From a virus (lineage: Duplodnaviria; Caudoviricetes), in IMG/VR virus record IMGVR_UViG_3300017766_003039, positions 2,985-66,984 of that record: a DNA stretch of 64,000 nt, one strand, 5' to 3'. The notes beneath the pieces are model-generated. The model had not been told where the DNA came from, searched no databases, and worked only from the letters and a program-made list of their open reading frames with translations. Shown one piece after another: positions 15,005 through 39,744 of this stretch; positions within the stretch are counted from its first letter, which is position 1, and each line of letters starts with the position of its first letter. The position numbers and the translations under genes are program-made.

Positions 15005-17519
15005 CGCGGCCTTCTTTCTTGAAGATCACCGGGAATTTCTTCACCACGTCCTCAGCAGCCTTGTCGCCATATTCCTCACGGAATGCACTCAGGCGCTCAG
15101 GGTTGGCAAGAAGAGCCTGTACGGCACGCCCCGGCGGCGTGATGTTGATCACAGGCGACCCCTCAACCCCGGTGTCATTCTCCGGATTGCCGATCACCCG
15201 GGGCTGAGCACGCTGGCGCCCGGCGAAGTTCGGGCCGCGGTCGACCACGTTGCGATCGCCACCGGTGCCCGTCGGGCCCCATGCCGCCTTCTGGGCAGCA
15301 TCGACATCGCGCGCAAAGTCCAACTCCCGGGCGTCGATTTCGGAAATGCCCTCGCCGATCGCCATCTTGCTTATGATGCGGCCCGCCACCTGGGCCGTCT
15401 CGACGCTCACCTTGCGGGCCCGTAGCGCATAGGCCATGGCCGCCGGCGCATCGTCACCAAACATCTTGCGGAAGTTCTGGCCCATCTCCTCCAGCGCCTT
15501 CTTCTGCTCGATCGGCGACGGCGGCGCCCGCATCAGCGGCTCGGTCAGCTTCAGCCCTTCAGCCTTCGTAATGACCGCCTGATACTCCGGGTCGATCCCA
15601 AGGATATCCTGAGCGTTCTTGCGGGCAGCGGCCACGGCAGCGAACGTCTCCGGCTGCTTCGGGTCATATAGCTTCCACGCCGCCTGTACCGCCGGCATGC
15701 GGTCTACCGCGCCGGCCGGATCCTCGTACCGCTGCTTCGTTATCCGGTCGGCCTCTTTCTGTAGGCGCTGGACCTTTTCGACCTGATTGGCATAGCCCGG
15801 CGCATAGACGCCGCCCTCGCCCGGCTTGGGCATCCTGGCCTCGACCACCCGGCGGATATCCTGCTCCGACATCGTTTCGAACGAATGCCGGTCCGCACCG
15901 AATTGCACCTCGTTCACATACTCCTGATATTTCACCGGGCCCGTTGTGGGGCCGTACTGCTGGACAAAGCTGCTTTCAGGAATGGGCGACGTCGTGGCGC
16001 CGGTCATCATGGCTTCCGCCGTGCTGTCCTTCACCTGACTGTCAAAGGCGGTCTTGGTCGCGATCTGGGCCGTGCGCGAGGCCTGATAGGTGCGGTTGGC
16101 CTGGGCGATCGCCGACGCTTTGGCCTGCGGTGTCAGGCTGGGGTCGTTCTCGATAGCGTTCATCACGCTGGCCTGGTCCGGCAGCGAGTCGCGCCCCTCC
16201 GGACCGACTTGCCCCTTCACGTTGGCGCCCTCGATCGCGCGCCGGCGGGCATTGATTCCGCCATTGTGGGTGCCCAGAGCCGTGATGGCAGCCGCCAGCT
16301 TCTCGGTATCTCCGGCCTTCGCCGCTTCTCTCACCGTGGCAAGTTCCGGCTTCGACAGGGTGCCGTAGTTGTAGGCGATCGACGTCAGCGACGCCTTGGC
16401 GCGGGCATCGAGCTTGTCCCATGCCTCTTGGCCAATGGCCTTGCGCGCGTCCTGCTGGCTCAATCCGGCACGCCGGGCCAGGTCGCGCTCGGCGTCCTCC
16501 TTGGTCACGACGGTATCCTTCGTCACCTTGGAATAGGTGCCATCGGCGTGCGTCACCGTGTCTGAGCCGTAGCCCACTCGCCATTCCGTCTTGGCGCCCG
16601 GCGACTTGTCCTCGTAGGCCGCGCTTCGGAAACCCTCAAAATGCCGGATCACCCCCAGCGTATCGTCACCAGCCTTCAGTGACGTGCCGCCACCGATAAT
16701 GCGGTCCGCCGTCTCCTGCCCCACTTGCTGGTCGGCTCGAGCCCGGAACCGGCTGGAGAGATTGTCGTAAAGCGTCCCGGCCGTGGCCTTGTTCTTTTCC
16801 AGCATGCGCATCGCCCGCGCCGGGTCTTCGACGGCGATCGCATCCAACTGCACAGCAAAGGCATCCCGCTTCCCGCGCTGCACGGCCTCCTCGTACATCG
16901 GGTCGCCCGGCTGCGCGCCGTCCATCTCGGCAAGTTTGACATAGGCAGAGATCAGGTTCGACGTGCCATTGCCCACGGCCTCGACGTCGGTTGGCTTCAT
17001 GGAGATATCTTCCATGGCCAGCTTGGCGCTCGCCTTGTGCGTCCCGGTCGCCCAGACCTTCTCCTGCTGGGTGGCATAGTTGCCGACTTGGGCATTGGTG
17101 ATGTTCCGGAAGCGACGCGAGGATCCATCGAAACGCATCTGCTGTTTAGCCGTGAGCAAGTTGCCACGGGTCTGCTGCATCAGCGTCTCAATTTGCTTCT
17201 CGACCGCAGGGCGGGCTTCCAGCGCCGCCTTGCCTTTCAGGTTCAGAAACCCGGGCGTCCCCGTTTCCGGGTCGCCGTAAAGGACCTTGCGGACGCCCTC
17301 TTCGTAGTTGTTGATCTGCTCGTCAGCCGCGACGTCACCGAAGAAGTTCCCGGCCTTGATCAGGTCAGCGCCAACCTCCCGCGTCGCCGCCCCAAGCTGC
17401 TGCTGCGCACGGCCGACGCCGGCACCAAAGGCGTCCGGCGTGGCTTGGCTGGAATCCTGAAACGTCGCCGGCGCGCGGCCTGGCTCGGTCTCGGGAACAA
17501 GGGGTGCGGAAACAGCGAT
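14997..17519 (-). CDS. Internal virion/ejection protein with GH24 lysozyme domain; probable ATC start
   Basis: Frame is open 113 codons upstream of the track's ATG (17180) to an ATC 5 nt after AAGGAGG; IRHFEGFRSAAYED...WRVGYG...SLTSIAYNYG...RRRAIE lysozyme motifs. Confidence 0.8.
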   Translation of the reverse strand: MAVSAPLVPETEPGRAPATFQDSSQATPDAFGAGVGRAQQQLGAATREVGADLIKAGNFFGDVAADEQINNYEEGVRKVLYGDPETGTPGFLNLKGKAALEARPAVEKQIETLMQQTRGNLLTAKQQMRFDGSSRRFRNITNAQVGNYATQQEKVWATGTHKASAKLAMEDISMKPTDVEAVGNGTSNLISAYVKLAEMDGAQPGDPMYEEAVQRGKRDAFAVQLDAIAVEDPARAMRMLEKNKATAGTLYDNLSSRFRARADQQVGQETADRIIGGGTSLKAGDDTLGVIRHFEGFRSAAYEDKSPGAKTEWRVGYGSDTVTHADGTYSKVTKDTVVTKEDAERDLARRAGLSQQDARKAIGQEAWDKLDARAKASLTSIAYNYGTLSKPELATVREAAKAGDTEKLAAAITALGTHNGGINARRRAIEGANVKGQVGPEGRDSLPDQASVMNAIENDPSLTPQAKASAIAQANRTYQASRTAQIATKTAFDSQVKDSTAEAMMTGATTSPIPESSFVQQYGPTTGPVKYQEYVNEVQFGADRHSFETMSEQDIRRVVEARMPKPGEGGVYAPGYANQVEKVQRLQKEADRITKQRYEDPAGAVDRMPAVQAAWKLYDPKQPETFAAVAAARKNAQDILGIDPEYQAVITKAEGLKLTEPLMRAPPSPIEQKKALEEMGQNFRKMFGDDAPAAMAYALRARKVSVETAQVAGRIISKMAIGEGISEIDARELDFARDVDAAQKAAWGPTGTGGDRNVVDRGPNFAGRQRAQPRVIGNPENDTGVEGSPVINITPPGRAVQALLANPERLSAFREEYGDKAAEDVVKKFPVIFKKEGRGG

Positions 17520-26799: not shown

Positions 26800-27144
26800 T
26801 TAGGTCCGATCATACAGCGGATTGCCCATCTTGCGTTCCGCTTCTTTGTTCTCGGCGTCTTCCGACTCGGTGCAGCACATATCCTCGATCTGCATCTCGA
26901 CCCGGCAGCTAACGCCGTTCTCACCATCGTCCCGGCTGACGTTCACAATCCGAGCCAGCGCATGGAAGTGAATGATGCCGCCCGAGCAAAGGTCCGACGT
27001 GTCAATCCCCAGCTTGATGAGCTCGCGCTGGTTCAGGCTGATGCGCGTGCCTGGCGGATAGTCCGGGCGCCCCGGCATCGGGATCGGCAGGATCTGATCC
27101 AGCTTTTCCTCATCCGACATCTCGAGCGAGACCATGGGCTTCAT
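26800..27144 (-). CDS. Putative capsid staple-like protein
   Basis: P.YPPGTRISL...L.KLG...VEMQIEDM pattern; ends GNPLYDRT. Confidence 0.55.
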   Translation of the reverse strand: MKPMVSLEMSDEEKLDQILPIPMPGRPDYPPGTRISLNQRELIKLGIDTSDLCSGGIIHFHALARIVNVSRDDGENGVSCRVEMQIEDMCCTESEDAENKEAERKMGNPLYDRT

Positions 27145-27147
27145 GGC

Positions 27148-27591
27148 CTAGCCCTCCGCGGGCTTGTCGGGCGGAGACTTCTCGGCAGAAGCGTCCTTCT
27201 TGGCCGTGCCGCCGGCGCCGAACGATAAATCGAAGTGATCGGCGATCTCCTTGTTGTGCCGCGAGCCCATCGTGCGATGCGCCTCGCGCATGCTGCCGTG
27301 GTGATCCATGCGCTCCTTCTCGTGGCGCTTATGGATCGCCTTCAGGCCATCCAGGAACATATCCTTGGGGGATGCGGCCTCTTCGGCCTCACCGTCGGCA
27401 GCCGCCGCGGCGCTATCGACCTCGGCCGCAGGGGCCTCTTCGCCGGCCTCGCCCTCGGCGGCAGCAGCCTCGGCTTCCGGCTTCTTCTCCGGATCGGGCT
27501 TCTCTTCGTCCTTGGGCTTGTTGTCGTACAGCGGGCTCTTGGTCATGGGCTTTATCCTCGAGGTAACGTCTGCCAATGTTGGGCTAGGCAT
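27148..27591 (-). CDS. Acidic/His-rich head-cluster protein starting with a copy of the MCP N-terminal peptide
   Basis: MPSPTLADVTSRIKPMTKSPLYDN...; second possible start at 27546. Confidence 0.75.
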   Translation of the reverse strand: MPSPTLADVTSRIKPMTKSPLYDNKPKDEEKPDPEKKPEAEAAAAEGEAGEEAPAAEVDSAAAAADGEAEEAASPKDMFLDGLKAIHKRHEKERMDHHGSMREAHRTMGSRHNKEIADHFDLSFGAGGTAKKDASAEKSPPDKPAEG

Positions 27592-27802
27592 TGATCTTGT
27601 CGTGACGGAACTTGCCCATCACCTCAGACCGGAAGAACGATCCTGCCGATTCAGCTTTCAGGAAACGATCGTACACATCCTTGGGCGCTTCAGGATAGCG
27701 ATAGAGGCCGCCAGACTTAAACCAGACCCACAGCCCGCTCTTGTCGTGAGCGACGCCGGAGATATTGCTGCTCTCCACCTTGACCTGCTTCGGGGGCTTC
27801 AT
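27584..27802 (-). CDS. KTSC domain protein
   Basis: VESSNISGVAHD...LWVWFKSGGLYRY...P.DVYDRFLKAESAGSFFRSEV. Confidence 0.9.
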   Translation of the reverse strand: MKPPKQVKVESSNISGVAHDKSGLWVWFKSGGLYRYPEAPKDVYDRFLKAESAGSFFRSEVMGKFRHDKINA

Positions 27803-27978
27803 TCTTTTTCCATCTCTTCGCGGTGCTTCTTTTGGAGCTCCGGCCAATCCTTCTCCGGAGTGTCGCGATATTCCTGCTCGTGCCGCTTGCGCATTTCCCT
27901 GCTGGCCCGGTTCTCCACCTGGGTGTCAGTGGCGCTCCCGGACCTGATGTGGTCGTACAGGGGCGGCCGGCCCTTCAC
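27799..27978 (-). CDS. Small charged protein (59 aa), missed by the ORF track
   Basis: GTG start overlapping upstream stop; MKGRPPLYDHIRSG...REMRKRHEQE...EMEKE*; stop overlaps the KTSC start. Confidence 0.7.
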   Translation of the reverse strand: MKGRPPLYDHIRSGSATDTQVENRASREMRKRHEQEYRDTPEKDWPELQKKHREEMEKE

Positions 27979-28148
27979 TTGCTCCTCGCGTGATCGTACA
28001 GCGGGTTCGCCTTGCGCTCAGGCAACTTTCCAGGCTTGTCCGCCGCCACGAATTCCTTAGCAACGGCTTGGGAGACGCCACCGGCGCCTCCCTTTTTCTT
28101 CGACGCCGCCCACATCAGGCGACGCTGCTTCTCGCTGACCGGTGGCAC
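27975..28148 (-). CDS. Small basic head-cluster protein (57 aa), missed by the ORF track
   Basis: MPPVSEKQRRLMWAA...GVSQAVAKEFVAAD...NPLYDHARSK*, a recurrent podophage mini-protein pattern. Confidence 0.75.
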   Translation of the reverse strand: MPPVSEKQRRLMWAASKKKGGAGGVSQAVAKEFVAADKPGKLPERKANPLYDHARSK

Positions 28149-28646
28149 TTAGCCGCCGACGCGGGCCACGCAGATATAGTCCCACTTGTTCCCGGACTGC
28201 GAAGCCTGCACCAGGGTGATCGCGGTGGCGCTCACCGAGTAGGCCGGCGTCGAAGTGCCCGGCGCGACCTGCGACGTCGCCACGCAGTAAGGCACCGCGG
28301 CGTAGGCCGTGGAGAAGGTGATCACGCAACCGGTGGCGCTGGTGCCCAGAGTGACCGTGCCGGCGCTGTCGGTGCCGGAGATCGCCGGAGAACCGGTGCC
28401 GCAGGACGTGAGCGCCGGGGTGCCAGAGTGGCCCGAGGCGCCGCCCAGCAGCCATGCCCGCATCTGGGTCAGGGTCGCGTAGACGTTGCCGGCGGTCGGC
28501 GCCGCGTTCGGGATCACCTGGACGACGTCGTTGACGCCCATCGAGACGGGGTTGGGCAGCGTCACCTGAGCGATGGCAAAGCCGCCGCCGAGCAGAAGGC
28601 CGATGGCAGCGAAGGCGCCGAGAATGCGAGTCTTGAGGGTCTTCAT
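28149..28646 (-). CDS. Fibre-tip/decoration-like protein with signal peptide
   Basis: MKTLKTRILGAFAAIGLLLGGGFAIA-Q; PALTSCGTG...GCVITF..AY...PYCV...DYIC. Confidence 0.7.
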   Translation of the reverse strand: MKTLKTRILGAFAAIGLLLGGGFAIAQVTLPNPVSMGVNDVVQVIPNAAPTAGNVYATLTQMRAWLLGGASGHSGTPALTSCGTGSPAISGTDSAGTVTLGTSATGCVITFSTAYAAVPYCVATSQVAPGTSTPAYSVSATAITLVQASQSGNKWDYICVARVGG

Positions 28647-28668
28647 GGTCTTCTCCTTGAACGAAGGG

Positions 28669-29526
28669 CTAGGCGCCGGCGGCCGAGATGCCCATCGACT
28701 GGACGGTCACGGCGGTGAGGCTGGTGAGGGTGACGATGAACCGGCGCGTCACGTTCTGGGCAATCGTCATGGTGCCCGTCAGCGTGATGCCGGTGTTGGT
28801 GGTGATGGTCGCGGTGTTGGCGCTGCCCGAGCCGTTGCGGATCTCCAGGATGTAGGAGAAGCCGATCTGGGCGTTCGGGATGGCAGCCACGACATCGGCA
28901 GCGGCCGGGAACTGGAGATTGCCCGGGGTCGTGCCCGTGTTGATGTGCTCGCAGACGTTGGCGCCGGCGACCGAGGCCGCGGCGATCGTGGCGCTCTCCA
29001 GAGCCGCGGTGACGAACTTCGCGTTCGGCAGGCTCATCAGCGGCACGACGTTGATGCCGGTCAGCGTGAAGGCGCCGGCGGTGTCCTGCTTCAGGAAGAA
29101 GTAGCCGACCGACAGGCCGGGGATGACCGTGAGGCCAGCCAGCGTGACGCCGGAAGCGCCGGCCGCCAAGGTCTGGGCAAAGGCCACCGTGTTCTTGATG
29201 GTCAGCAGGCGAGTGGCGCCCACCGGGGTATCGGCGCCCAGGGCCGCAAGGATCTGCGCGCCCGTGGCCGTCGTGTCGGTATAGACGTCCGTGGGGCCGG
29301 AGCGCGTGATCAGGCCGCCGGCGATCGCCGCCGCGGTCAGGGTGCCAGCACCCACCGTCGTGATGGCGGTGTTCTGCACATCGTTCGAAAGCTCGAAAAA
29401 CTGCGACAGGTTGCCGAGGTTCGTCTTGGCCGACCGAGGACCGACCGTGATGATGTCGACCTCCATGTTCGCCGCAAGTTCATCGGCATCCAGCATGATG
29501 GCGCCAGGAGCAATCGGGTCGACCAT
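28669..29526 (-). CDS. Capsid decoration-like protein with two tandem similar domains
   Basis: Two repeats of the pattern T..AA..AG...T.T...P/T.A.I.AA...G....L.I.N......T..G.G.TL.G. Confidence 0.6.
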   Translation of the reverse strand: MVDPIAPGAIMLDADELAANMEVDIITVGPRSAKTNLGNLSQFFELSNDVQNTAITTVGAGTLTAAAIAGGLITRSGPTDVYTDTTATGAQILAALGADTPVGATRLLTIKNTVAFAQTLAAGASGVTLAGLTVIPGLSVGYFFLKQDTAGAFTLTGINVVPLMSLPNAKFVTAALESATIAAASVAGANVCEHINTGTTPGNLQFPAAADVVAAIPNAQIGFSYILEIRNGSGSANTATITTNTGITLTGTMTIAQNVTRRFIVTLTSLTAVTVQSMGISAAGA

Positions 29527-29541
29527 TCTTCGGTCCTTTCG

Positions 29542-30420
29542 TTACAGAAGGGGAACCGACAGCGTCCGCGCTGCCTGTCCGGTTTCGCTGATACGATACT
29601 TCAGGGCTACATCCGACGCCGGCGTCACCGCCGTGAGGTTCAGCCGATAGAGCACCATGTTCTCAGGCTCGCCAAAGCTGAGCGAAATCGGCGTCGCCGG
29701 ATTCCACTGAGCCAGCGCGCCGGAGCCGCCGATGTTGCAGACGATCCATGTCGCGCCGCCGTCAAAGCTGCGCTCGAGTTGGACCGAGCCGGTCAGGCCG
29801 ATCGCGGCACCGGTGATGGTCGCCGCTGCGTCCACACCGGTCGGAACCGCGCCGGCCGCGGCCAGGGCAAATTCGTAGGGAGTCGGCTGGTCGTTGGGGG
29901 GAGAGGCCGTCGTCACCGCACTCAGGCTGACAGTGCCCTTGATGCCGTTGGGGACGTTGGGAGAAGGCGCCACCGCGGCGACGTCGATCGCCGTCACGGT
30001 CTGGCCCCCGGTCACGCCCAAGCCGGAAACAACCGCGCCCAGCAGGTCGCTGGTATCGGCGAGGTCCGTGATCTTGGCGATGCCGTTGATGATCTTGCCG
30101 GGGAGCGTGACCGTCGGCAGCACCATCTCGATGTCGGTTCCCGCGACGGAGCCGACCGTGGTGCCCCGCGGAACCAGCGAGCTATTGATCGCCGAGCCCG
30201 CCGCCACCGTCGTCGCCAGGACGGCCGACAGATCGGCAGCCGTCGTGGTCAATTCGTCCGTGAACTCTCCCCAGATGGCGAGGTTCATCGGGCCGAGGAA
30301 AGCAAAAGGCTTGGTCGGGCCGAGCGCCGCCAACGTCCCCTGAATCACGCCATTGGCCATGTCCCCGACAAGCGGTGACTTGCCAGAAGCGCCTACGCCG
30401 AGGGGAGCCGGGACGCCCAT
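29542..30420 (-). CDS. Structural (decoration-like) protein
   Basis: C-terminal GSVQLERSFDGGATW...EPE..VLYRLN...YRISE pattern; Thr/Ala-rich central insertion. Confidence 0.6.
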   Translation of the reverse strand: MGVPAPLGVGASGKSPLVGDMANGVIQGTLAALGPTKPFAFLGPMNLAIWGEFTDELTTTAADLSAVLATTVAAGSAINSSLVPRGTTVGSVAGTDIEMVLPTVTLPGKIINGIAKITDLADTSDLLGAVVSGLGVTGGQTVTAIDVAAVAPSPNVPNGIKGTVSLSAVTTASPPNDQPTPYEFALAAAGAVPTGVDAAATITGAAIGLTGSVQLERSFDGGATWIVCNIGGSGALAQWNPATPISLSFGEPENMVLYRLNLTAVTPASDVALKYRISETGQAARTLSVPLL

Positions 30421-30423
30421 ACG

Positions 30424-31200
30424 CTACACTCCAGCCGTCTGGATAACCGGCGGCGCCGACTTGCCGAGCACATGCGTGTGCGTCTGCTCCGGAGCCGAGG
30501 ACTGACCCGGCACGCGCGGATCGTTGAAAATCTTCTTGCTGGGCTCCGCGACTTCCGGCGGGGCGACGTTCGGGCGGCCCTTGACGATGCCCTCCTTGGA
30601 GAACACCCACGGGCTATCCGAGCGCAGCCAAGGCGCGTCCGGCAGGCCTTCGGCAGCGGCGCTGCCAATCGACTGCTGGAACAGGCCAAACACCTGAGCG
30701 GCGTTCTCGTCGTTCGGCACCATGCCTTCGTTCGGCGGCCGGTCCCAGTAGATGACCGTGTCGTTGAACTTCTTGGTGGCATCGTCCCGCCACTGCGGGT
30801 CCACCAGAGTGTCGTCCAGCCACATCTGCGTGCGGATCGTGTAGGTCGGGACGACGCCCCGGGCCCGCAGGTCCACCAGCAATGCCACCATCTGATCGCG
30901 AGCCACCTTGCGGCGCTCGACGACATCCGGCGCCACCATGCGCATCTTGTTCTTGGGATCGCTCGCCTGAACGATCGCCGAGGCCAGATGACGCGCGAAG
31001 TTTTGGTCCGTGTTGCCGCCGCCCGGATCGGCCGTGCCGGCTTCCGCCCGCGCGACGCCCACCGACTGCATCACCTGAGCGGTGATGCTGGCCACGAGGC
31101 TCGGCATCATTTCCGAAATACGGTCTTCGGCCTTGCGGTCGATTTCCGCGTTCTTCTCTGCCAGTTCCCGCGCGATCTGAGCGTTGGACTTCCGGGCCAT
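30424..31200 (-). CDS. Hypothetical head-cluster protein
   Basis: Long ORF downstream of the cement gene with typical codon usage. Confidence 0.7.
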   Translation of the reverse strand: MARKSNAQIARELAEKNAEIDRKAEDRISEMMPSLVASITAQVMQSVGVARAEAGTADPGGGNTDQNFARHLASAIVQASDPKNKMRMVAPDVVERRKVARDQMVALLVDLRARGVVPTYTIRTQMWLDDTLVDPQWRDDATKKFNDTVIYWDRPPNEGMVPNDENAAQVFGLFQQSIGSAAAEGLPDAPWLRSDSPWVFSKEGIVKGRPNVAPPEVAEPSKKIFNDPRVPGQSSAPEQTHTHVLGKSAPPVIQTAGV

Positions 31201-31201
31201 G

Positions 31202-31759
31202 CTAGGCGACCCCGCTCACGGAGTAGTTCCGCGCCGCCTGAGCCGCGAAGTAGTCGTCGCGAGCCTGGGTGACCAGAGCATAGGCGATCGTGCCGGCCGA
31301 GTAGTTGGTGCCGGCCAAGATGTTGAAGTTCAGCCGCAGGAAGCGCGGACGCAGGTTGTCCGGGAACGGCGGCAACCAAGGGATACGCGCGATCTGGCGA
31401 CCGGCGATGCCCTGAGCGGCCGTGATCAGCGGGCCGGCGCCGAGCACCTGGTAGGTGCCGGGCGAGCCGCTGCCGTTATCCGGAGCGGCCTGCAATTCGA
31501 CCTGAAGGATGGGCGAACCGGTATCGGCCACCAGAGCGGTGCCGATCGCCACGACGAGCTCGGGGCGCATATTGCCCTGGCCCATGGCGTCGGCCTGACC
31601 CGGGAGGGTGGCGATGCCGGTGATGTTCTGCACGGTCGTGCCAGCGCCATTGCCCAAGAGGTCGATGACCCCGGGAGCAAGGACATCGACGCCCGCCGCG
31701 GCCACGAGGGACAGCGGCGAACCGTAGGGCACGAAGGCCAGCTTGGAGTCGATCAACAT
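31202..31759 (-). CDS. Bbp16-like capsid cement protein
   Basis: MLIDSKLAF...VIDL...ELVV...LQVELQAAPDN...RFLRLNF; directly after MCP. Confidence 0.8.
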   Translation of the reverse strand: MLIDSKLAFVPYGSPLSLVAAAGVDVLAPGVIDLLGNGAGTTVQNITGIATLPGQADAMGQGNMRPELVVAIGTALVADTGSPILQVELQAAPDNGSGSPGTYQVLGAGPLITAAQGIAGRQIARIPWLPPFPDNLRPRFLRLNFNILAGTNYSAGTIAYALVTQARDDYFAAQAARNYSVSGVA

Positions 31760-31789
31760 GGTCTGTTGTCCTTTCGTGAACGGGGCCGC

Positions 31790-32839
31790 TTAGGAGACGG
31801 CGCTTTCGGTGATCAGGAGGCGATCGCTGACCTTCACCGGCACGCCGCGGAACACATCCTGCGGCCGGCCAGCGGCGTCGTTGATCGTGAGCAGCACGTT
31901 GCGATCGCGCATGCCCTGGGCGTCCATCCAGAAGCGGATGGTGCGGTTGGCGTAGATGACCGGACGCACGCTCGGGGTCGGATCCGTCGGCGAGTCGGTC
32001 TTCATGATTCCGGAGACGCCCTTGCCGAGCGCCGGCGGCAGCATGACCGCCTGCGACAGCAGCAGGAACAGGTCGGGAGCACTAGCGCCCGCGAGACCGG
32101 CGCTGGTGGTGTCGAGGTTGGCGATGCGCACCGCGTTGCGCCAATCCTCGGGCACGATGTTGCCCTGCTGGCGGAAGTAGGTGGTGTAGGCCTCGTAGCG
32201 GTTACCCACGTTGTCGTAGGCCGGGACCGTGTCGGCCTTGTCCTCGGAGACCAGGCCCGCCTTGGAGTTGCGCGGGTAGGTGCCGTACACCGTGCGCTCG
32301 CCCCAAGCGACCAGCCAGAGCGAAGCGTTCGAAGCGCCGACGCCGCCGCCGTTGATCACGTTCACCGCGTTTTGTGCGGTGGCCTGATTGAGCGTGTTGT
32401 AGAACAGGCTCAGGCCCAGGAAGGCGGCCGGGTTGGTGTTGGTGTTGCCGTACCAGAGGGTCTGCTCCCAGGTCTGGCCCATGCCTTCGATGAAGGCGAC
32501 GTCCTCGGTCGTGCGGAACGCCTCGATACCGGACGGGTTGGCTTCGGCCAGCATACGGTCGATCTGGCTGTAGCCCTCGAGCGAGCCCATGCCCAGGCGA
32601 GCCTTGCCGGTGGTCGACTTGCTGTAGCCGACGCCCTGATTCAACTGGCGGAAGTTGCCGGCCGGGAGCGACGTGCGGTAGCTGAACTCATGCCCGAAAA
32701 TCTCGGTGCCTTCCTTCAGCGGCATGTCCTCGACCAGCGCGGTGCTCTGCGAGAGCATTTCCGCGATATACATCTGCTTGCCCGCACCGTCGATACGGGA
32801 GGTAACGTCGGCCAGCGTCGGCCATGCACCTGTCGCCAT
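31790..32839 (-). CDS. Major capsid protein (HK97 fold, BPP-1 Bbp17-like)
   Basis: PTLAD...IAEMLSQ...RTSLP...FRQLNQG...EDVAFIEGMGQ...LWYGN...DWRNAVRIAN...FRGVPVKVSD.L..TE. Confidence 0.93.
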   Translation of the reverse strand: MATGAWPTLADVTSRIDGAGKQMYIAEMLSQSTALVEDMPLKEGTEIFGHEFSYRTSLPAGNFRQLNQGVGYSKSTTGKARLGMGSLEGYSQIDRMLAEANPSGIEAFRTTEDVAFIEGMGQTWEQTLWYGNTNTNPAAFLGLSLFYNTLNQATAQNAVNVINGGGVGASNASLWLVAWGERTVYGTYPRNSKAGLVSEDKADTVPAYDNVGNRYEAYTTYFRQQGNIVPEDWRNAVRIANLDTTSAGLAGASAPDLFLLLSQAVMLPPALGKGVSGIMKTDSPTDPTPSVRPVIYANRTIRFWMDAQGMRDRNVLLTINDAAGRPQDVFRGVPVKVSDRLLITESAVS

Positions 32840-32864
32840 GAAAATTCTCCTTCAGTCTGTGCCG

Positions 32865-33797
32865 CTACCCGCGGCCGTTGGTTTGAGAACGCGGGTGGTC
32901 GTGAAGCGGATTGCCGCTACGCTTGCCCCCTTCGGGAACGAGTTTGACGTCCGTATGAACCGGGACGGACGGCTCCGACAGCTTCCGTTGCGCGCGGTAG
33001 ACCATGCGCAGGAAAGCCGGATTGTCCCCCGCGCCGGTGACGCGGAGAAACATATTGAAATGATCCATGTCGGCCTGCCACTCGGGCGTGCCTCGCGGGT
33101 GATCCGACACGAACTCGTCGCGAAACTGGGCGATCTTGGTCATGGCCGCGTCGTGGCCGGACCCGCCGAGAATTTCGTCGGCCTTCACTTCCGTGCGCCA
33201 GCCGCGGCGCGTGTCGGCCCATACCTGGTGCTGATTGCGCTCGACGTTCTCGATCACTTCCGTGAGCGCGGTGTTGTGCAGATCGACGAGCCCTTGCAGA
33301 TCGCCCGTGCGCGCCATCTGGGCCGCGGCATGGAACTGATCGCGCCGAGCGTCGTCCATCTGGATCGTCTCGGGCAACTCGTACTTGAACTCGATCGGCG
33401 GCAACTCGGGGGCCGGAGCCTCCTCGACCTTCTCGCCGTCAGCCGGCTTCTCTTCGGCCTTGACCTCTTCCACCGGCTTGTCGGCTTCGGGCTTCGCCTC
33501 GGCGGGCTTGTCTTCGGCAGCGGGCTTCTCGCCATCGGCAGGCTTCTCGGCTTCCGCGGCCGGCTTCTCCGCCCCGACTTCCTCGAGCAGCGTGGCGCCA
33601 GCGTCCGGCAATTCCTTGGCAGCGGGGGCTTCGGCAACGGGCGCCTCGGCAGCCGGCGCTTCGGCGGCCGCAACGGGCGCGTCCGCAACAGGAGCCTCTG
33701 CCGCCGGGGCCGGAGCGATAGTCTCGCCGGCGGCCGGCGCCGCAGTATCCGCGGTCACTTCGGCCGACAGAGGAAGCTCGGGCTGTTCGTCAGCCAT
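32865..33797 (-). CDS. Capsid scaffolding protein
   Basis: Acidic Ala/Glu/Pro-rich N-terminus, YELPE, W..EVKAD..LGG, G.GDNPAFLR motifs; directly upstream of MCP. Confidence 0.8.
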   Translation of the reverse strand: MADEQPELPLSAEVTADTAAPAAGETIAPAPAAEAPVADAPVAAAEAPAAEAPVAEAPAAKELPDAGATLLEEVGAEKPAAEAEKPADGEKPAAEDKPAEAKPEADKPVEEVKAEEKPADGEKVEEAPAPELPPIEFKYELPETIQMDDARRDQFHAAAQMARTGDLQGLVDLHNTALTEVIENVERNQHQVWADTRRGWRTEVKADEILGGSGHDAAMTKIAQFRDEFVSDHPRGTPEWQADMDHFNMFLRVTGAGDNPAFLRMVYRAQRKLSEPSVPVHTDVKLVPEGGKRSGNPLHDHPRSQTNGRG

Positions 33798-34189
33798 TAT
33801 CGCTTGCCTTTTGGCTTGGGAAAGTGGGGATGGAATTCATCCATGAGCGAAAGGATCCCGGCGCGATCGAGCGCGGACCACGAGTGATAGAGCCGCTGGC
33901 CGAATTCATGCCGGCCAAGATTGAGCCAGGACCCTTCCGGGTGCGGATGGCCGTGCGGACCGAACCCAAGCTGGATGCTGAACGCATCCGACGCCTCGAG
34001 CAGTCCCCACAGGAACTTGCGACCGATCGGATCAGCAAGCTGCTTGGTGAGCCACGCCGCGAGCTCGCGCCGATCTTTCTCGGCGACGCTTTCACGAGCA
34101 CGCCGCTCGCGCTTGCCTTCAACAGCACTGCGCTGGACGGGCACATCTTCGGGGCGATCGACGGGCGCGTCATCATCAGGCTCGGCCAT
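33797..34189 (-). CDS. Bbp19-like protein
   Basis: LADPIGRKFLWGLL...F...NLGRHEFGQRL. Confidence 0.75.
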   Translation of the reverse strand: MAEPDDDAPVDRPEDVPVQRSAVEGKRERRARESVAEKDRRELAAWLTKQLADPIGRKFLWGLLEASDAFSIQLGFGPHGHPHPEGSWLNLGRHEFGQRLYHSWSALDRAGILSLMDEFHPHFPKPKGKR

Positions 34190-34631
34190 GGATCGCCGAC
34201 TCGGGGATCACGAGACCGCTCGGATTGCGGATGTAGACGGGCCGATTCTCGCGGTCGGTGGGGCGCGCGATCGGCAGGATGGCACCGAGGCGGCCGGTCT
34301 TTGCGGTGCGCAGCTTCTCGCACTCGGCCAAGGCGTCCTTCATCTTCACGCCCATGGCGAGGAATATTTCCCGGGCGGCCCGCGAACGAACCGCATCCCC
34401 GATACGCTGATGGAACCGGGCCATCTCAAAACCAAACCGGGCCCAGCGCATATCGGTGCGCCAATGAGCGGCCTGGCGCGACGCGCCCTCGATCAACTTC
34501 AGATTGTCGACGAGCTTGCGGTAGGTCGGACCCTGAGCGGGCAGCTTTGCCAGATTCTCACAGTGCTGGGCCGCCTCCCGGAGGTTGGTCCGGAGGCAGT
34601 CGAAGATTTCAACTTCAGTGAGTGTGGACAT
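34176..34631 (-). CDS. Hypothetical protein, first gene of the capsid transcription unit
   Basis: No SD upstream; promoter-like boxes just before the ATG. Confidence 0.7.
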   Translation of the reverse strand: MSTLTEVEIFDCLRTNLREAAQHCENLAKLPAQGPTYRKLVDNLKLIEGASRQAAHWRTDMRWARFGFEMARFHQRIGDAVRSRAAREIFLAMGVKMKDALAECEKLRTAKTGRLGAILPIARPTDRENRPVYIRNPSGLVIPESAIHGRA

Positions 34632-34639
34632 TGGGATGT

Positions 34640-34669
34640 ACTATGCGTCCCCAATCCGTCCCCATACAA
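34640..34669 (-). promoter_or_regulatory. Candidate sigma70 promoter (TTGTAT-18-CATAGT) with an 8-bp direct repeat CGTCCCCA in the spacer
   Basis: Repeats at 34646-34653 and 34657-34664; lies between divergent genes. Confidence 0.45.
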
Positions 34670-34732
34670 CATGCAGTAGCGAATAACGGGGAACGGGATT
34701 ATAGTTGAGGCCTGAGCCGGGGAAATTTAGGA

Positions 34733-34948
34733 ATGCCAGATCAGGACGAAACCTACCTCTCCAGGAAAGAGGCTGCCGATTACCTGCAACGTCGGCGCTG
34801 CCATATCTCCTACGCCACACTCGGCAATATGGCCGCTGGGAACAACTCCGGCGGCGGCCCACCCTTCTACAAAGACGGCGGCCGCGCCCTTTACACCCCG
34901 ACCGATCTCGATCAGTGGCGCCGCGGGCGTCTGCGGAGAGTCGAATAG
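34733..34948 (+). CDS. Xis/HTH_17-like winged-helix DNA-binding protein, on the opposite strand inside the head region
   Basis: YLSRKEAADYL...TL...A..G.GPPFYKDGGRALY..TDLDQW. Confidence 0.85.
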   Translation: MPDQDETYLSRKEAADYLQRRRCHISYATLGNMAAGNNSGGGPPFYKDGGRALYTPTDLDQWRRGRLRRVE

Positions 34949-34952
34949 CCCC

Positions 34953-34987
34953 AAAGAAAACGGCGCCCTATGGGGGGGGAGCGCCGT
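34953..34987 (-). terminator. Intrinsic terminator after the portal unit
   Basis: ACGGCGC/GCGCCGT stem followed by TTTCTTT on the - strand. Confidence 0.65.
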
Positions 34988-35006
34988 CGTAGTTTGGGGA
35001 GATACA

Positions 35007-35228
35007 TCATGCAGTAGACGTGAAAGGGCCGAGCGATACTCTGCCGGCCCGTGACCGCAGCATACACCTGGCGGCACCTTTCGCAACGTCGCGCGTTATC
35101 CCCAGAACCGGGAGACCGCCATGACCCTCGCCCCACCGCTTGCCGCGGCTGATCCGCTTGATGCTTTCCTCAGCCTCTTCAGCCTGGGTCTTTTTGGAAC
35201 GGGGATTGTCGTGGAGAGGGTTGGCCAT
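35007..35228 (-). CDS. Small protein downstream of portal
   Basis: MANPLHDNPRSKK... Confidence 0.7.
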   Translation of the reverse strand: MANPLHDNPRSKKTQAEEAEESIKRISRGKRWGEGHGGLPVLGITRDVAKGAARCMLRSRAGRVSLGPFTSTA

Positions 35229-35232
35229 CGGT

Positions 35233-37065
35233 CTAGCTCGGCACCGTGTCGCCGCTCAGCAGCGAATTCAGCATCGACCCGCCGCCAACCGGCGTCTGGC
35301 TCAGCACCTTCGCGGCATCGACCGCCGGCTTGGCCAGGCTCGAGGCCTGCTGCTGCTGCATCGCAAGATTCTCGGCATCCGCCCGGACCTTGTCTGCGTT
35401 CTGCACTTCCGTTTCCGAATACATCGAGTCGGCCGGGAAGTTGTTGAGATCGAGATAGTGGCGCGTGGCCTTGTCCCAATTCACGACGCGGCCAGGATCG
35501 GGGCGACCGGCGTTCTTGGCCGCCAGCGAAAGCTGCCCGACGGTCTGGAAGCCGTCCTTCATCGCCACCGACTCGGCACTCTTCTGCGCCATCCGCATCA
35601 ACGACATATAGTTGATCTTCAGCGGGATCTTCGCCAGCGACGGCGGCATGGGCTTCAGCATCCCGCGGCGCCCCATGATGGCGATCACGCGCTGGAGCAC
35701 CGGGCCGGCCACGTCGTTTTCGAACAGGTCGATCACCGGGCCCAGAACCTGTAGCCGCTCGAGATCACGCTTCGTGAGCTCCAATTCGTTGCGCGGCTGG
35801 ACACCCTGCATCTGGGTGATGGCCATGAACTGCGGGACGTAGAACACATCCTTCAGCCGGGCCTCGACTTCTTTAATATCGGCAGACAAATACTGAAGCC
35901 ACTGCGGCACAATCTCAAAGGCGGGCTCGAAAGCCTTCTTGCCGTTCGACGTGTTCACGAACGTCACCATGCCGGGCATCACCGACGCGGGCTCGTTCTT
36001 GAGCGCGGGATCCGCCACCATCGGCGGGCGCACGCCCTTCTCGATGAACTCGGCCTTGCGATAGGACTCCTGCTGAAGCTGCTTCTGGTCGCCCAGGCCA
36101 TCCATGCCGGGGCCGCGGCCGTAGGGATCGTTGCTCACCACCGACCACCGACCGGCCATGAACGGCTTCTCCATAAAGCCGCGAACGCTCAGGGGCTTCT
36201 CGGACTTGCGGCCCCGCAGCCAGTAGACCTCGCGGTAGGTATAGCGGCCGGATACGACGTCGATCCGTTTGCCGTTCTTTCCCTTGGGGCCGATCGCGAA
36301 GTTGGGCTCGATCGCATGGGCGACGATGAATTCCTGGTCAAGCTGGCCACCGCCCTGCTCCCACAGGCCCTTCACCTGGGCCGGGCAATTCTCCAGCCCG
36401 AACATCTCGACGATCTGGATCACCGTCAGCGTGAACTCGCGATAGAGCGTGTCGACCGAGAACCGCGCGCCGGCACCCAAGAAATACTCGCCCACGCAGG
36501 GCAAGTAGAACCGGACCACGTCCTCCTTGTCCTCGTAGCAGATCAGCGGCGACGTCCCGAAGATCGTCACGTCCTGGAAGAACTGGGCCATTACGCCGTA
36601 GAAATTCGACTGGTGCAGCACCGCCTGGACGCGCGTACCGGTGTCCTGAAGCCACTCCTTCGCCGCCTGGTCGAGCTTCACGTTGCTCAGCGCCGGTTCG
36701 AACTTGAACCACGGCCGCGCCGGATTGGTGAGACCGCTCCACATGCCCGACGCGCACGTCAGGGCCGCCATGCAGCCGACCGAGTCTATGATCGCGTCGT
36801 TGAGGTAATTGCCGCGATTGTAGTTGTTGGCGATGATCCAGGCCTTAGCACGCCGGGGCAGGAAGAACGTCCCCAATTGCTGCCACGTCGCCCACCAGGT
36901 CCAGCGCCACGTCCGCAGGCCGTTCATCCGGCGCTCGAGATGGCTGAAGGTCTGGTCCCACCACTTGGGCTGCTGTTCAAAGCCGCTCGGCAGCGTCAGC
37001 GGCTGGGCCGACAGAAAGTCTGGCCCCATCTCGGTATAGGCGGCCGTGCCGGCATCAAGCGGCAT
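35233..37065 (-). CDS. Portal (head-tail connector) protein, Bbp21-like
   Basis: W..L..F.LPRR...IIDS.G...A.G.WSGLTNPARPWF...SNFY...FGT...RW.....YGRGPG...RP...RLQVLGPV. Confidence 0.93.
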   Translation of the reverse strand: MPLDAGTAAYTEMGPDFLSAQPLTLPSGFEQQPKWWDQTFSHLERRMNGLRTWRWTWWATWQQLGTFFLPRRAKAWIIANNYNRGNYLNDAIIDSVGCMAALTCASGMWSGLTNPARPWFKFEPALSNVKLDQAAKEWLQDTGTRVQAVLHQSNFYGVMAQFFQDVTIFGTSPLICYEDKEDVVRFYLPCVGEYFLGAGARFSVDTLYREFTLTVIQIVEMFGLENCPAQVKGLWEQGGGQLDQEFIVAHAIEPNFAIGPKGKNGKRIDVVSGRYTYREVYWLRGRKSEKPLSVRGFMEKPFMAGRWSVVSNDPYGRGPGMDGLGDQKQLQQESYRKAEFIEKGVRPPMVADPALKNEPASVMPGMVTFVNTSNGKKAFEPAFEIVPQWLQYLSADIKEVEARLKDVFYVPQFMAITQMQGVQPRNELELTKRDLERLQVLGPVIDLFENDVAGPVLQRVIAIMGRRGMLKPMPPSLAKIPLKINYMSLMRMAQKSAESVAMKDGFQTVGQLSLAAKNAGRPDPGRVVNWDKATRHYLDLNNFPADSMYSETEVQNADKVRADAENLAMQQQQASSLAKPAVDAAKVLSQTPVGGGSMLNSLLSGDTVPS

Positions 37066-37068
37066 CGC

Positions 37069-37329
37069 CTAAGCCCCCAGCAATTCTTTTTTGGCCTTGG
37101 CCGTCGTGCCGAGGTTGTCCCCCTGTGACGACGTCTTGATTGTGCCGTCCATCCCCTTGCCATTCCCGGCAGCGGCGGCGCGATAGGCGGCCTGGCCGGC
37201 GACCTGGCCTTGCGCGTCAGCAAACTGCGGAGCAGCGGGAGGCGGCGGCGGGGGAGGAGGAGGAGCAGCCGCCGCGACGTAGGTGTTGCCCCCACCGCTG
37301 CTACCACCCTGGCCGAAAATAAAGCCCAT
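37069..37329 (-). CDS. Small Pro/Gly-rich protein upstream of portal
   Basis: MGF...PPPPPPPPP...GTIKTSSQG...KKELLGA, typical of the pre-portal gene. Confidence 0.7.
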   Translation of the reverse strand: MGFIFGQGGSSGGGNTYVAAAAPPPPPPPPPAAPQFADAQGQVAGQAAYRAAAAGNGKGMDGTIKTSSQGDNLGTTAKAKKELLGA

Positions 37330-37556
37330 CACTCGCCCCCTTTGGATACCGCTTCGACGGGAACATCCTTGGCGCGCTCCTGCACCTTATCGCCGCCGAT
37401 GTATTTCACCAGGCACTTCCGGCAGATGTCATGGCCGTTGACGGCATGGACGCCCAGAGCCTCTTCAACGCCATTGATCGGGTAGACCCCAATCGCCAAC
37501 GGATTCTTTTCGGTGATCTCCTCGCCGCACGAGTCGCAGAAAACCTTCGTGCTCAT
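37329..37556 (-). CDS. Small zinc-finger protein
   Basis: CDSC...HDICRKC. Confidence 0.7.
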   Translation of the reverse strand: MSTKVFCDSCGEEITEKNPLAIGVYPINGVEEALGVHAVNGHDICRKCLVKYIGGDKVQERAKDVPVEAVSKGGE

Positions 37557-37918
37557 GACGTCGGAATCTCCCGCTTCTTGCGAAGCCGCCAATGCTCGTA
37601 TTCCTCGCCGTTATTTTTGCGATCCTCATCCGACGGCACAGCCTTGAATGACGGCGTTGGCCCCTTGCTGCCGCCCTTCCGGTGCGCGTCGATGTCCTCG
37701 CTCATTTCCTTCATATCCTTGGGGTCGATCTTATCGGGATGACCCTCCGGCATGTTCTCCATACCGATGCTTTCGTACTCGCCCTTGAACTCCACCCGGC
37801 GCTGGCCGTCCTGCTGCTCAAAATCCTCCGTGCGCCGGTCGCCCTTTTTGGCTTCCTGCACTTCCTCGCGCTTCTTCTTGGAGCGCGGATGATCGTGGAG
37901 GACTTCCGACCGGGCCAT
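37553..37918 (-). CDS. Charged hypothetical protein
   Basis: MARSEVLHDHPRSKKK...; TGATG overlap with upstream gene. Confidence 0.7.
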   Translation of the reverse strand: MARSEVLHDHPRSKKKREEVQEAKKGDRRTEDFEQQDGQRRVEFKGEYESIGMENMPEGHPDKIDPKDMKEMSEDIDAHRKGGSKGPTPSFKAVPSDEDRKNNGEEYEHWRLRKKREIPTS

Positions 37919-38226: not shown

Positions 38227-39744
38227 CTACCGGTTGAACGGATCGTAAGGGGTGACGGCGCCCTGCGGGGACTGCCCGGAGATCCGGTCAATATCGGCAA
38301 ATGGATTGTAGTGGCCGCCCATGGCCGACCGCGCCACGGTCGCGCGGGCCGTTCTCGATTTTGGGGTGACCGGCTCGGCAAAGGTCAGAGCGCAGGCATC
38401 GGCCTCGTCGGGGGAGAAGCCGAGCTTCCGCTTGATGTCGTCCTTGTCCTCGAGCATGAGGCGGTCGTTCTTGAACGTATAGACCGTCTCGGTGAGGGCC
38501 TTCAGCAATTCCCGGCTGCCCTCCTGATCCTCGGGCGGCAGCGCCCCGCCGGCCTTGATCCAGTCGACGAACAGGAAATACATCTCGGCGCGACGGTTGG
38601 CGTAGCGCATCTCGACCGAGGCCTTGGAATTGAACTGCACCGGGATCGACGCCTTGCCCAGCACGTTCAATTGGTCGATCCATGTGAAACCCAGGCCGCC
38701 GGTCGCGTCTACAAAGCAGGCGTCGGCATCGAACTCATTCCAGTGCCGGTTGGCGATCGAGGCGCCCGTCACGCCGTCCGGCACGTTCCGGTAGCGGCGG
38801 AGGTTGTGCATTTGGGGACCGTGGCGCATGGCGATCACGCTGGCATCATCGCCCTGGCGCGCGACGTCGATGCCCATGATCTTCGGCTGGTTGCCGATTT
38901 CCAGCGGCCGATACCACCGGCGCATGGCGGCGCGCACTTCGTCCGGGCCGATCAGGGCCGTCAGCGACGTCGGGGGGAAGCGCCCGAACACGTTCACGAG
39001 AACGAATGGATGCTCAGCGCCGTACTTTTCGATCTGCTGCCGGGCCCAGTCGATATGGACGCGGCTCGCGCGCTCGGGATCGTCCGGGTCGCCGGTGATC
39101 TCCTTGCGCCACCACAGATCCTTCTCGGAGGTCGCGGCGCGATAGAGCGGACCGGAAAGGTTGGTCGGATTGCCGGCCTGGACGATATGGCCTTCAACGC
39201 ACGACGCAAGCGCCGCTTCAGCCGCGGCCATCACCGAGTCGGGAATGCTGCCGCTTTCATCCAAGAGGAACAGCATGTAATCGCTATGGAGGCCGGCGAG
39301 TGTGTTGGCCTGCTCCTCGGCATTGCCCGTCTTCGGCCAGGTGCGGGCGGACATCCACCAGTTACCCGCCAGATCGGTCTGCTTCGCGGCAATGCGCGTC
39401 GTCGTCCACACGAAGTTGTCGCGCAGGAATGGGGACTTGGCCTGCCACTTCGCCATCTCTTTCCAGAGACCGTCGCGAAGCTGATCGCCGCTGATCGACG
39501 TCGCTGCAATGTTGGGGCTCGGCCGAGTCGCGAGGAAATTCCATCCCAGCCACGCCAGCACGGTCGTCTTGCCTGGACCTTTGCAGGCTTGGAGTGCAAT
39601 GCGCTGATTGTGGGGGAAGGCCTCAAGAACCGAGTCTTGCCAGGCATCCGGCGTGACGCCGAATTGCTCGCGGACGAAGATACGAGGGTCCTTGCGATAG
39701 AGCGCGATGCGCTCCTGCTCCGCCGACATCTTGGGCTTGGCCAT
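38227..39744 (-). CDS. terL: Terminase large subunit
   Basis: Walker A LQACKGPGKT, Walker B LFLLDES, coupling motif GNP, nuclease IMGIDVARQGDD and SPDEADA. Confidence 0.95.
   Translation of the reverse strand: MAKPKMSAEQERIALYRKDPRIFVREQFGVTPDAWQDSVLEAFPHNQRIALQACKGPGKTTVLAWLGWNFLATRPSPNIAATSISGDQLRDGLWKEMAKWQAKSPFLRDNFVWTTTRIAAKQTDLAGNWWMSARTWPKTGNAEEQANTLAGLHSDYMLFLLDESGSIPDSVMAAAEAALASCVEGHIVQAGNPTNLSGPLYRAATSEKDLWWRKEITGDPDDPERASRVHIDWARQQIEKYGAEHPFVLVNVFGRFPPTSLTALIGPDEVRAAMRRWYRPLEIGNQPKIMGIDVARQGDDASVIAMRHGPQMHNLRRYRNVPDGVTGASIANRHWNEFDADACFVDATGGLGFTWIDQLNVLGKASIPVQFNSKASVEMRYANRRAEMYFLFVDWIKAGGALPPEDQEGSRELLKALTETVYTFKNDRLMLEDKDDIKRKLGFSPDEADACALTFAEPVTPKSRTARATVARSAMGGHYNPFADIDRISGQSPQGAVTPYDPFNR

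Follow-up and report, generated by a model that had tools for sequence, protein, structure and literature searches.

A peptide shared by the scaffolding protein and small head-module proteins of an uncultured epsilon15/BPP-1-type podophage is probably a docking tag for head assembly

The 64,000-nucleotide stretch of DNA analysed here (the window; bases 2985-66984 of the 66,984-bp viral contig IMGVR_UViG_3300017766_003039, rated complete by CheckV) comes from an uncultured podophage of the epsilon15/BPP-1 type, and in its head module seven minus-strand genes, that of the scaffolding protein among them, encode a short peptide, L[YH]D[HN]xRS or a shortened form of it, close to one end of their products. 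From its sequence and distribution this peptide, hereafter the tag, is probably a docking tag for head assembly, and it would represent, in this clade, a docking peptide that the GP7-type (epsilon15/BPP-1-like) podophages have in common, made up of a hydrophobic residue and Tyr (here Tyr or His) within lineage-specific flanks. We put a probability of about 0.55, a little better than even, on the reading that several proteins use it to dock on a single phage-encoded partner in head assembly, likely the major capsid protein (MCP), and that small proteins are thereby recruited into procapsids. The main new result, as judged by sequence comparison, is that a scaffold-tail tag which co-varies within genomes is found throughout the phage family and reaches well-studied phages.

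A sequence-only reading of the window had listed seven copies and had claimed that they are restricted to the head region and conserved at the level of the peptide, and both claims held. All seven peptides were present on the minus strand exactly where that reading had placed them (Table 1), each in a head-module gene and at most 20 residues from a terminus. A six-frame search for L[YH]D[HN].RS, run on the window and on the whole 66,984-bp genome, gave five sites, all in minus-strand open reading frames (ORFs) between 27.9 and 37.9 kb, with the strict pattern nowhere else; residue frequencies predict 0.007 sites and 300 shuffles yielded none, which answers the objection that the motif might be as frequent in shuffled sequence. 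The looser PL[YH]D matched eight times against an expectation of about 1.1-1.35, six of the eight being listed tag sites, and two shorter copies, SPLYDN and a terminal NPLYDRT, complete the set of seven. Synonymous codons differ between the copies for Leu (CTT/CTC/CTG), His (CAC/CAT), Tyr (TAC/TAT), Asp, Arg (CGT/CGC/AGG) and Ser (TCT/TCC/AGC); since the codons differ while the peptide stays, what is conserved is the peptide rather than the DNA.

Table 1. Features of the window, followed by loci in related phages and viral contigs (handles beginning with L). Positions are those of the window unless a handle precedes them; (stop) marks the end of the reading frame; aa, amino acids.
Feature	Position	Strand	Remarks
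Tag-like TLYDNLSS	16752-16772	-	inside ORF 14997-17180, at about residues 137-143
gp10-like protein, 114 aa	26800..27144	-	PF21628; ends in partial tag NPLYDRT(stop), 26803-26823
147-aa protein	27148..27591	-	partial tag SPLYDN, 27520-27537, preceded by MCP N-arm copy (residues 4-13, 27553-27582) and in-frame Met
KTSC-domain protein, 72 aa from ATG at 27802	27584..27802	-	PF13619, 2e-13
59-aa charged protein	27799..27978	-	tag copy 5, PPLYDHIRS, within MKGRPPLYDHIRS, N-terminal, 27940-27966
57-aa protein	27975..28148	-	tag copy 4, NPLYDHARSK(stop), C-terminal, 27981-28007; matches phrog_16759
285-aa Thr/Gly/Ala-rich protein and its 292-aa neighbour	28669-29526 and 29542-30420	-	285-aa protein matches phrog_673, 2.5e-17
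MCP, GP7 type	31790..32839	-	PF20911, 2.3e-88, 296.5 bits (cut-off 27); N-arm PTLADVTSRI, residues 7-16, 32792-32821
Scaffolding protein, 310 aa	32865..33797	-	directly upstream of MCP; phrog_458; tag copy 1, NPLHDHPRS, 6 residues before C-terminus, 32886-32912
71-aa ORF	34733-34948	+	resembles excisionase/AlpA-type helix-turn-helix (PF12728, E 2e-4, under gathering score)
73-aa ORF	35007..35228	-	directly after portal gene; tag copy 2, MANPLHDNPRS, N-terminal, 35196-35222
Portal protein	35233..37065	-	PF12236, 1.6e-109, 367 bits; alternative candidate receptor
Protein with (T/E/A)LLG[AQG](stop) tail	37069-37332	-	just upstream of portal gene; phrog_831
121-aa highly charged protein	37553..37918	-	between terminase and portal genes; tag copy 3, EVLHDHPRS, within MARSEVLHDHPRS, N-terminal, 37880-37906
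Large terminase	38227-39744	-	from position and reading of the sequence
N-arm copy and tag, L004 and L005	L004:15128-15508, L005:15251-15586		MPNLTLADLSSRTTK-M-...VLHDNPRSPK..(stop)
N-arm copy and tag, L006 and L007	L006:6924-7463, L007:12355-12897		M[SP]SPTIADVASRSTK-M-...SPLHDNPRS
N-arm copy and tag, L010 and L008	L010:16498-16842, L008:8471-8968		MP[SN]LTLADL[SH]SRSTKP-M-...LHDHPRS..(stop)
N-arm copy and tag, L021	L021:5890-6153		MKLTLADLASRP-M-...MYDNPKSHPSD(stop)
Relatives with (T/E/A)LLG[AQG](stop) tail	L013:3037-3243, L014:5509-5916, L015:1968-2222, L016:2061-2579, L107:3068-3274, L109:2193-2408

Apart from the scaffold and the gp10-like protein, the proteins carrying the tag are small and fast-evolving, with a very high content of Lys, Arg, Glu and Asp. 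The G+C content of third codon positions (GC3), at 0.76-0.80, supports coding of all the small carriers save the 73-aa ORF (0.66 compared to 0.76-0.89 in the other carriers). The N-terminus of this ORF recurs at the same post-portal position in one relative (L007). The 121-aa gene has its true start at the ATG at 37918, overlapping the stop of the upstream membrane-protein ORF (GC3 0.77), and its product had no Pfam or PHROG match, while the 59-aa gene begins with a GTG that overlaps the stop of the 57-aa gene (GC3 0.80). A tblastn search of 50,697 phage records with the 57-aa protein gave no match.

In nine viral contigs with MCPs 58-77% identical to that of the window, and in more found with an MCP profile, all of the scaffolds end in the same motif, and across 15 related viral contigs the tag was present on the scaffold and on one to six small proteins. 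After masking of the tag the carriers fall into recurrent orthogroups, each with the tag at one fixed end, so that conservation in homologues, a test on which the proposal could have failed, was instead found at the same terminus of each orthologue. The tag is C-terminal in the 57-aa type (seven loci; the orthologues in L004, L005, L007, L008, L010 and L021 all end in it), in the 62-74-aa and 85-89-aa types and in the gp10-like type, whose orthologue in L007 ends in a full tag, SPLHDHKRSR; it is N-terminal in the 147-180-aa type and in the post-portal protein. Orthologues of the 147-aa protein carry it N-terminally in L005, L018, L019 and L021, and in L006 and L007 they have a full tag together with a copy of the N-terminal arm (N-arm) of the MCP. 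A blastp cluster that joined scaffolds with proteins of the 147-aa type was traced to low-complexity Ala/Glu/Pro/Lys stretches, the search having been run with filtering off, and is not read as homology.

The tag was also found in prophages of Rhizobium sp. BK313 (L096) and of Bradyrhizobium and Acetobacteraceae metagenome-assembled genomes (L097 and L100), in each case on the scaffold and two to three small proteins. These alphaproteobacterial prophages were found with an alignment of the clade's MCPs, a contig search with the single MCP having matched nothing. As its tagged prophage relatives are alphaproteobacterial, the host of the phage is probably an alphaproteobacterium. The BK313 prophage is a possible culturable model of the clade.

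The scaffolding protein is, as modelled, a helical protein whose flexible tail bears a short linear motif at its end. Its sequence runs from a low-complexity N-terminus rich in Ala, Glu, Pro and Lys, through a four-helix domain, to a flexible tail of about 35 aa, the tag and a final 6 aa. An AlphaFold2 (AF2) model of the last 130 aa gave four helices with a predicted local distance difference test score (pLDDT) above 95, followed by the tag-bearing tail of about 35 residues at pLDDT 56-68, with no helix in the last 36 residues. Searched against PDB folds, this C-terminal model had no match at E <= 0.001 and nothing protease-like, no Pfam domain was found in the protein, and the sole match of its sequence among PDB chains was a spurious, low-complexity one, which was discarded. 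The position of its gene directly upstream of the MCP gene and its helical, non-enzymatic model are those of a scaffolding protein, and tblastn found homologues in epsilon15 (gp6) and its relatives and in BPP-1 (Bbp18). In an alignment of 42 scaffolds the Tyr or His of the tail is one of eight columns conserved at 90% or more, the 25 columns before it being variable, and beyond the helical domain no scaffold residue is as well conserved as the tail Tyr.

Members of this scaffold family (epsilon15 gp6, phiV10 p09, BPP-1 Bbp18, Ab31 ORF06 and Jess A gp048) are labelled 'protease' or 'endoprotease' in public records. Because no protease domain was found and a helical bundle with a flexible tail is modelled, this annotation is probably a misannotation that has been propagated.

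The whole phage family, cultured members included, shows a simpler version of this sharing. Among non-identical scaffolds of the GP7-MCP family, 62 of 67 have, among their last 16 residues, a Tyr directly preceded by a hydrophobic residue (or Arg), and in the remaining five, that of the window included, Leu-His or Leu-Phe stands at that position; a pair ending in Tyr of this kind occurs in only 7.5% of internal 16-residue windows of these scaffolds. A hydrophobic-Tyr tail also ends 31 of 41 non-identical gp10-like proteins, and the lineage-specific scaffold tail recurs on the gp10-like protein (PF21628) and on other small ORFs of the same phage. In the cultured phages the gp10-like proteins are epsilon15 gp10, phiV10 p13, BPP-1 Bbp20 and CP2 ORF12. 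Thus the scaffold of epsilon15 ends in DLISAFYPKK and a gp10-like or small ORF in ELKDAFYPDGEDD (shared AFYP), with the corresponding pairs being SAAEVLYGK and SAAETLYGNGGE in phiV10 (shared SAAE[VT]LYG), ARRLYAASNMNP and AQRLYGASSMSA in BPP-1 (shared RLY[AG]AS), NRMYPDM and ARMYADDPSMKD in Xanthomonas phage CP2 (ARMYADD..; shared RMY) and AKSLYPNSNHN and AAKLYKDTD in Caulobacter phage Jess A. Uncultured relatives extend the pattern: a scaffold with RGWYDS.. is accompanied by a terminal QKRWYG and by MAERKWYGK at an N-terminus (L038), one with GLRGLYKS.. by an N-terminal MAGLRGMYKK (L022), and one with TLYPNMAG.. by three small ORFs ending in KLYPNQK, TIYPKQGKK and KMYPKLATNDGD (L060).

To score this co-variation, ten flanking positions were compared between scaffold and gp10-like protein in 19 lineages, the two core residues being excluded. 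The mean flank score was 7.3 for pairs from the same genome and -1.0 across genomes, and none of 100,000 permutations of the pairing reached the observed mean, although the lineages are related, so that their independence is overstated by this test; the pattern can also be seen plainly by eye. Epsilon15 and phiV10, both phages of enteric hosts, have different tail flanks.

A second peptide is shared with the MCP itself. The first residues of the 147-aa protein include ten that are identical to the MCP N-arm (Table 1), which is nearly invariant across the MCPs of 56 relatives, and in the relatives an N-arm copy ([PS]TLAD[LV]xSR) opens several unrelated small tagged proteins. An in-frame Met directly follows the copy in every case, which leaves room for a long and a short isoform. 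The C-terminal element of the scaffold binds the coat N-arm in P22 and 80alpha (PMC5644958), and the N-arm copies would thus tie the tagged proteins to the scaffold-capsid interface.

The 114-aa protein, a homologue of epsilon15 gp10, matches PF21628 at 1.4e-8 (35.3 bits, the cut-off being 27) and PDB 3j40_N at E 1.2e-4. Its AF2 model is a long beta-hairpin with short helices (pLDDT 84) for which no PDB fold matched at E <= 0.001, and a guess that it might be an AbrB-type swapped hairpin found no support in that search. The sequence-only reading had called this protein staple-like, a label which is now doubtful: in agreement with this model, a 2022 re-analysis of the epsilon15 map gives the outer 'staple' density to the 130-aa gp8, a homologue of the BPP-1 cement protein Bbp16, and the 111-aa epsilon15 gp10, whose earlier assignment came from virion proteomics, is probably not the outer staple (PMC9207676). 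This removes the conflict of an 'outside' protein with an 'inside' tag, and as the 114-aa protein then has no established role as an outside decoration, an internal position is open to it. The Pfam description of PF21628, 'major coat protein-like', rests on the old epsilon15 model and, with that re-analysis (PMC9207676) and an AF2 hairpin that has no PDB match, looks outdated.

In the scaffold the peptide stands at the end of a tail of some 35 residues, modelled as flexible, behind the four-helix domain, and the gp10-like protein and several small, charged, fast-evolving proteins display the same peptide at one terminus or the other. The tagged proteins would then bind the same site as the scaffold tail on a phage-encoded component of head assembly, most likely the inner face of the MCP in the procapsid, and this binding would co-assemble them into procapsids as internal or accessory head proteins. 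A phage-encoded, co-evolving partner is suggested because the flanks co-vary within genomes and differ between phages of similar hosts (epsilon15 and phiV10), because the motif occurs only in the head module, and because the tag occurs at either terminus, which is how a short linear motif should behave. The MCP is the most likely receptor because no other component offers enough sites for a high-copy scaffold and several further carriers, because scaffold C-termini bind coat proteins in the systems that have been studied, and because tagged proteins also mimic the MCP N-arm. The sequence-only reading had proposed that the phage reuses its scaffold's coat-binding motif as an address tag; the peptide-level conservation, the confinement to the head module, the likeness to the scaffold tail and the co-variation all speak for this, whereas coat binding, the MCP as receptor and packaging are the parts that we infer. 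A complex prediction for the MCP (56-row alignment) with the last 71 residues of the scaffold (42-row alignment) scored 0.00 against a mark of 0.32, but was made without controls and is given no weight either way. In the literature searched, no earlier description was found of the motif in the scaffold tail, Bbp20 or Bbp18 or in work on the location of epsilon15 gp10, nor of its sharing with gp10-like proteins, nor of the N-arm copies.

Several observations weigh against a docking peptide for the MCP or limit the case for it, besides the relatedness of the permuted lineages. The TGxGNHP helical domain is a further conserved element of the scaffold and may be what actually binds the coat, in which case the tail would be left for contacts with the portal or between scaffolds. 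Among the gp10-like proteins listed, nine end in acidic tails that have no motif, and in the window the copies in the 147-aa and gp10-like proteins are only partial. The 73-aa ORF is weakly supported as a gene, its coding being uncertain past the N-terminus, and the 121-aa and 59-aa carriers had no homologue in the fetched loci. From BPP-1 virions only Bbp17 and Bbp16 have been identified, as two major gel bands, so Bbp20 is not an abundant virion protein.

The peptide could be a docking peptide whose receptor is the portal or the scaffold's own helical domain, the carriers riding the scaffold core as the targeting sequence of T4 is thought to do, and we consider this unlikely but worth keeping in view. 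The separate conserved helical domain (TGxGNHP...R) could bind coat in the way of the helical elements of P22 and 80alpha; many tails of the family read [LM]YP, which recalls the Tyr-Pro portal-binding motif of the herpesvirus scaffold; and two tagged genes flank the portal gene. However, a portal offers only 12 sites for hundreds of scaffold copies and up to six other carriers, the conservation of the tail Tyr better fits a main, stoichiometric partner, and the co-occurring MCP N-arm copies point to the MCP lattice. It is less probable still that the tagged proteins are not cargo at all but competitors for, or regulators of, the site of the scaffold tail, timing scaffold release or tuning assembly. 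If the site is shared, competition is unavoidable for proteins with the same motif as the scaffold tail, the N-arm mimic on some carriers could also compete for the scaffold, and CpmB does compete with the 80alpha scaffold (PMC5644958), yet a group of seven carriers whose bodies are unrelated and fast-changing has more the look of cargoes than of regulators, and the 111-aa gp10 of epsilon15 was reported from virions (PMC9207676).

The slimmest chance of all goes to the idea that recombination or gene conversion among adjacent late genes left these copies behind and that they have no common function: the carriers do lie within 11 kb and two copies are only 41 nucleotides apart, but the peptide is kept despite different codons at most positions, each orthologue has the tag at the same terminus across contigs whose MCPs are 58-73% identical, and the same arrangement occurs in distant genera. 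A head-protease cleavage site, or a degron by which a host protease removes the scaffold and accessory proteins, is suggested by the 'protease' label of the scaffold homologues and by T4-type tags, which are protease sites. We rejected this idea as very improbable, on the lack of a protease and on the positions of the tag, since a scan of 20 head-module proteins showed no protease domain, the labelled 'protease' is all-helical and scaffold-like in its AF2 model, little would be gained by cleavage 1-11 residues from a C-terminus, and the tag stands at both termini with flanks that are not constant among phages infecting one group of hosts. Unrelated proteins often have short terminal motifs by which they bind a common hub, and a host factor (a chaperone, protease adaptor or membrane component) might in this way be recruited to several late proteins; this too was rejected and given very little credence, because the flanks follow the phage's own scaffold and not the host taxon, as in epsilon15 compared to phiV10, and the motif is confined to the head module.

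Returning to a docking peptide copied from the scaffold tail, a bolder form of it, which we hold only tentatively and think rather doubtful, would be a two-peptide address code for the head interior, general in the protease-less epsilon15/BPP-1-type podophages. One peptide would be the copy of the scaffold's hydrophobic-Tyr tail and the other the copy of the MCP N-arm, which might bait the coat-binding domain of the scaffold, and either peptide, at either terminus, would be enough to bring any small protein into procapsids. The 111-aa epsilon15 gp10, long a puzzle, would be such an internal cargo, and alphaproteobacterial members may have expanded the cargo to six or more fast-evolving proteins that would enter the host with the DNA.

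The head module in which the tag occurs lies on the minus strand and encodes, in order, the large terminase, a small membrane protein, the 121-aa tagged protein, two 87-aa proteins, the portal, the 73-aa tagged ORF, two small genes, the 310-aa scaffold, the MCP, five proteins of no known family, the 57-aa and 59-aa tagged proteins, the KTSC-domain protein, the 147-aa tagged protein and the 114-aa gp10-like protein, several of these genes being linked by start-stop overlaps. A PF20911 MCP, a T7-type portal (PF12236) and the order portal-scaffold-MCP mark it as a GP7-type module, and the MCP sequence matches PDB 3j4u, 3j40 and 8cjz. The KTSC-domain protein sits amid the run of tagged mini-genes yet carries no tag. 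On the plus strand, a 71-aa ORF (Table 1) lies inside the module between the 73-aa tagged ORF and the next head gene. The phrog_673 family, which the 285-aa protein matches, is labelled 'head scaffolding protein', but the sequence of that protein is not scaffold-like and lacks the tail tag. The protein encoded just upstream of the portal gene has another conserved tail, a terminal (T/E/A)LLG[AQG], which it has in common, across the family, with epsilon15 gp3, phiV10 p06, BPP-1 Bbp22, Ab31 ORF03 and proteins of Jess A and of a Vibrio phage (loci in Table 1), and several proteins with this tail start with MC or a hydrophobic segment. Elsewhere in the window, TLYDNLSS directly precedes the Phage_lysozyme domain (PF00959, residues 180-314) of a 727-aa putative internal virion protein and could be either chance or an internal docking site on an ejection protein.

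If a docking peptide of this kind is at work, it would explain how small proteins enter the head in a widespread podophage family that has neither a prohead protease nor a T4-like targeting sequence. For epsilon15 gp10 and BPP-1 Bbp20, placed in published capsid maps by assignments that have since been questioned, it would supply a role and a location that can be tested, and it would show which end of the scaffold family labelled 'protease' in databases is the functional one. In practice it could provide a tag of 10-15 residues for loading foreign proteins into the heads of epsilon15, phiV10, BPP-1, CP2 and Caulobacter phage Jess A, the co-variation of the tail flanks between lineages would offer natural specificity variants for swaps, and the reading is directly testable in laboratory phages.

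Parts of this arrangement are known from other systems. The sequence-only reading had likened the tag to the coat-binding end of the P22 scaffold, a C-terminal helix-turn-helix with an electrostatic partner in the coat N-arm, and in both cases the C-terminal end of the scaffold is at least the candidate coat-binding element; the analogy is a loose one, as the P22 element is folded and is not known from other proteins, whereas the tail here is modelled as unstructured and follows a separate helical domain. The internal proteins IPI-III and Alt of T4 have a short N-terminal capsid targeting sequence, removed by the gp21 prohead protease, and resemble our carriers in that a short terminal peptide is common to unrelated small, charged, fast-evolving proteins, which in T4 are loaded into the prohead. 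The T4 sequence differs in being strictly N-terminal, while the tags of the scaffold, 57-aa and gp10-like proteins are C-terminal, in being removed by a protease, while the 20 head-module proteins scanned matched no protease family, and in not being known as a copy of the scaffold's coat-binding end, while here the tag is the scaffold tail. The cargo-loading peptides of encapsulins are likewise short, disordered, mostly C-terminal and at times N-terminal peptides on otherwise unrelated proteins, docking on the inner face of an HK97-fold shell in an N-arm/P-domain pocket, but their Gly/Ser/Leu-rich consensus bears no resemblance to the tag, encapsulin shells have no portal or DNA, and in this phage the same peptide is also the tail of the scaffold. 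The Tyr-Tyr-Pro-Gly-Glu motif by which the herpes simplex virus scaffold binds the portal is, again, a short aromatic-Pro scaffold motif that recruits a head component; this is a resemblance only, that motif being internal, portal-binding and not known from cargo proteins.

By analogy, the tag would work most like the pair formed by the 80alpha scaffold and the SaPI1 protein CpmB, which have in common a C-terminal RIIK 'helix-and-hook' that binds the N-arm of the capsid protein (PMC5644958). There, as here, the extreme C-terminal peptide of the scaffold is copied onto a second small protein; both 80alpha-system proteins use the same site on the capsid protein, the binding tail is short, and the rest of the 80alpha scaffold is disordered in the maps (PMC5644958). 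The 80alpha element is an amphipathic helix and hook, whereas the AF2 tail here is unstructured and its binding is a matter of analogy, and 80alpha has one extra carrier, encoded by a satellite and redirecting capsid size, while in the present case the phage itself would encode up to six, with the tag at either terminus.

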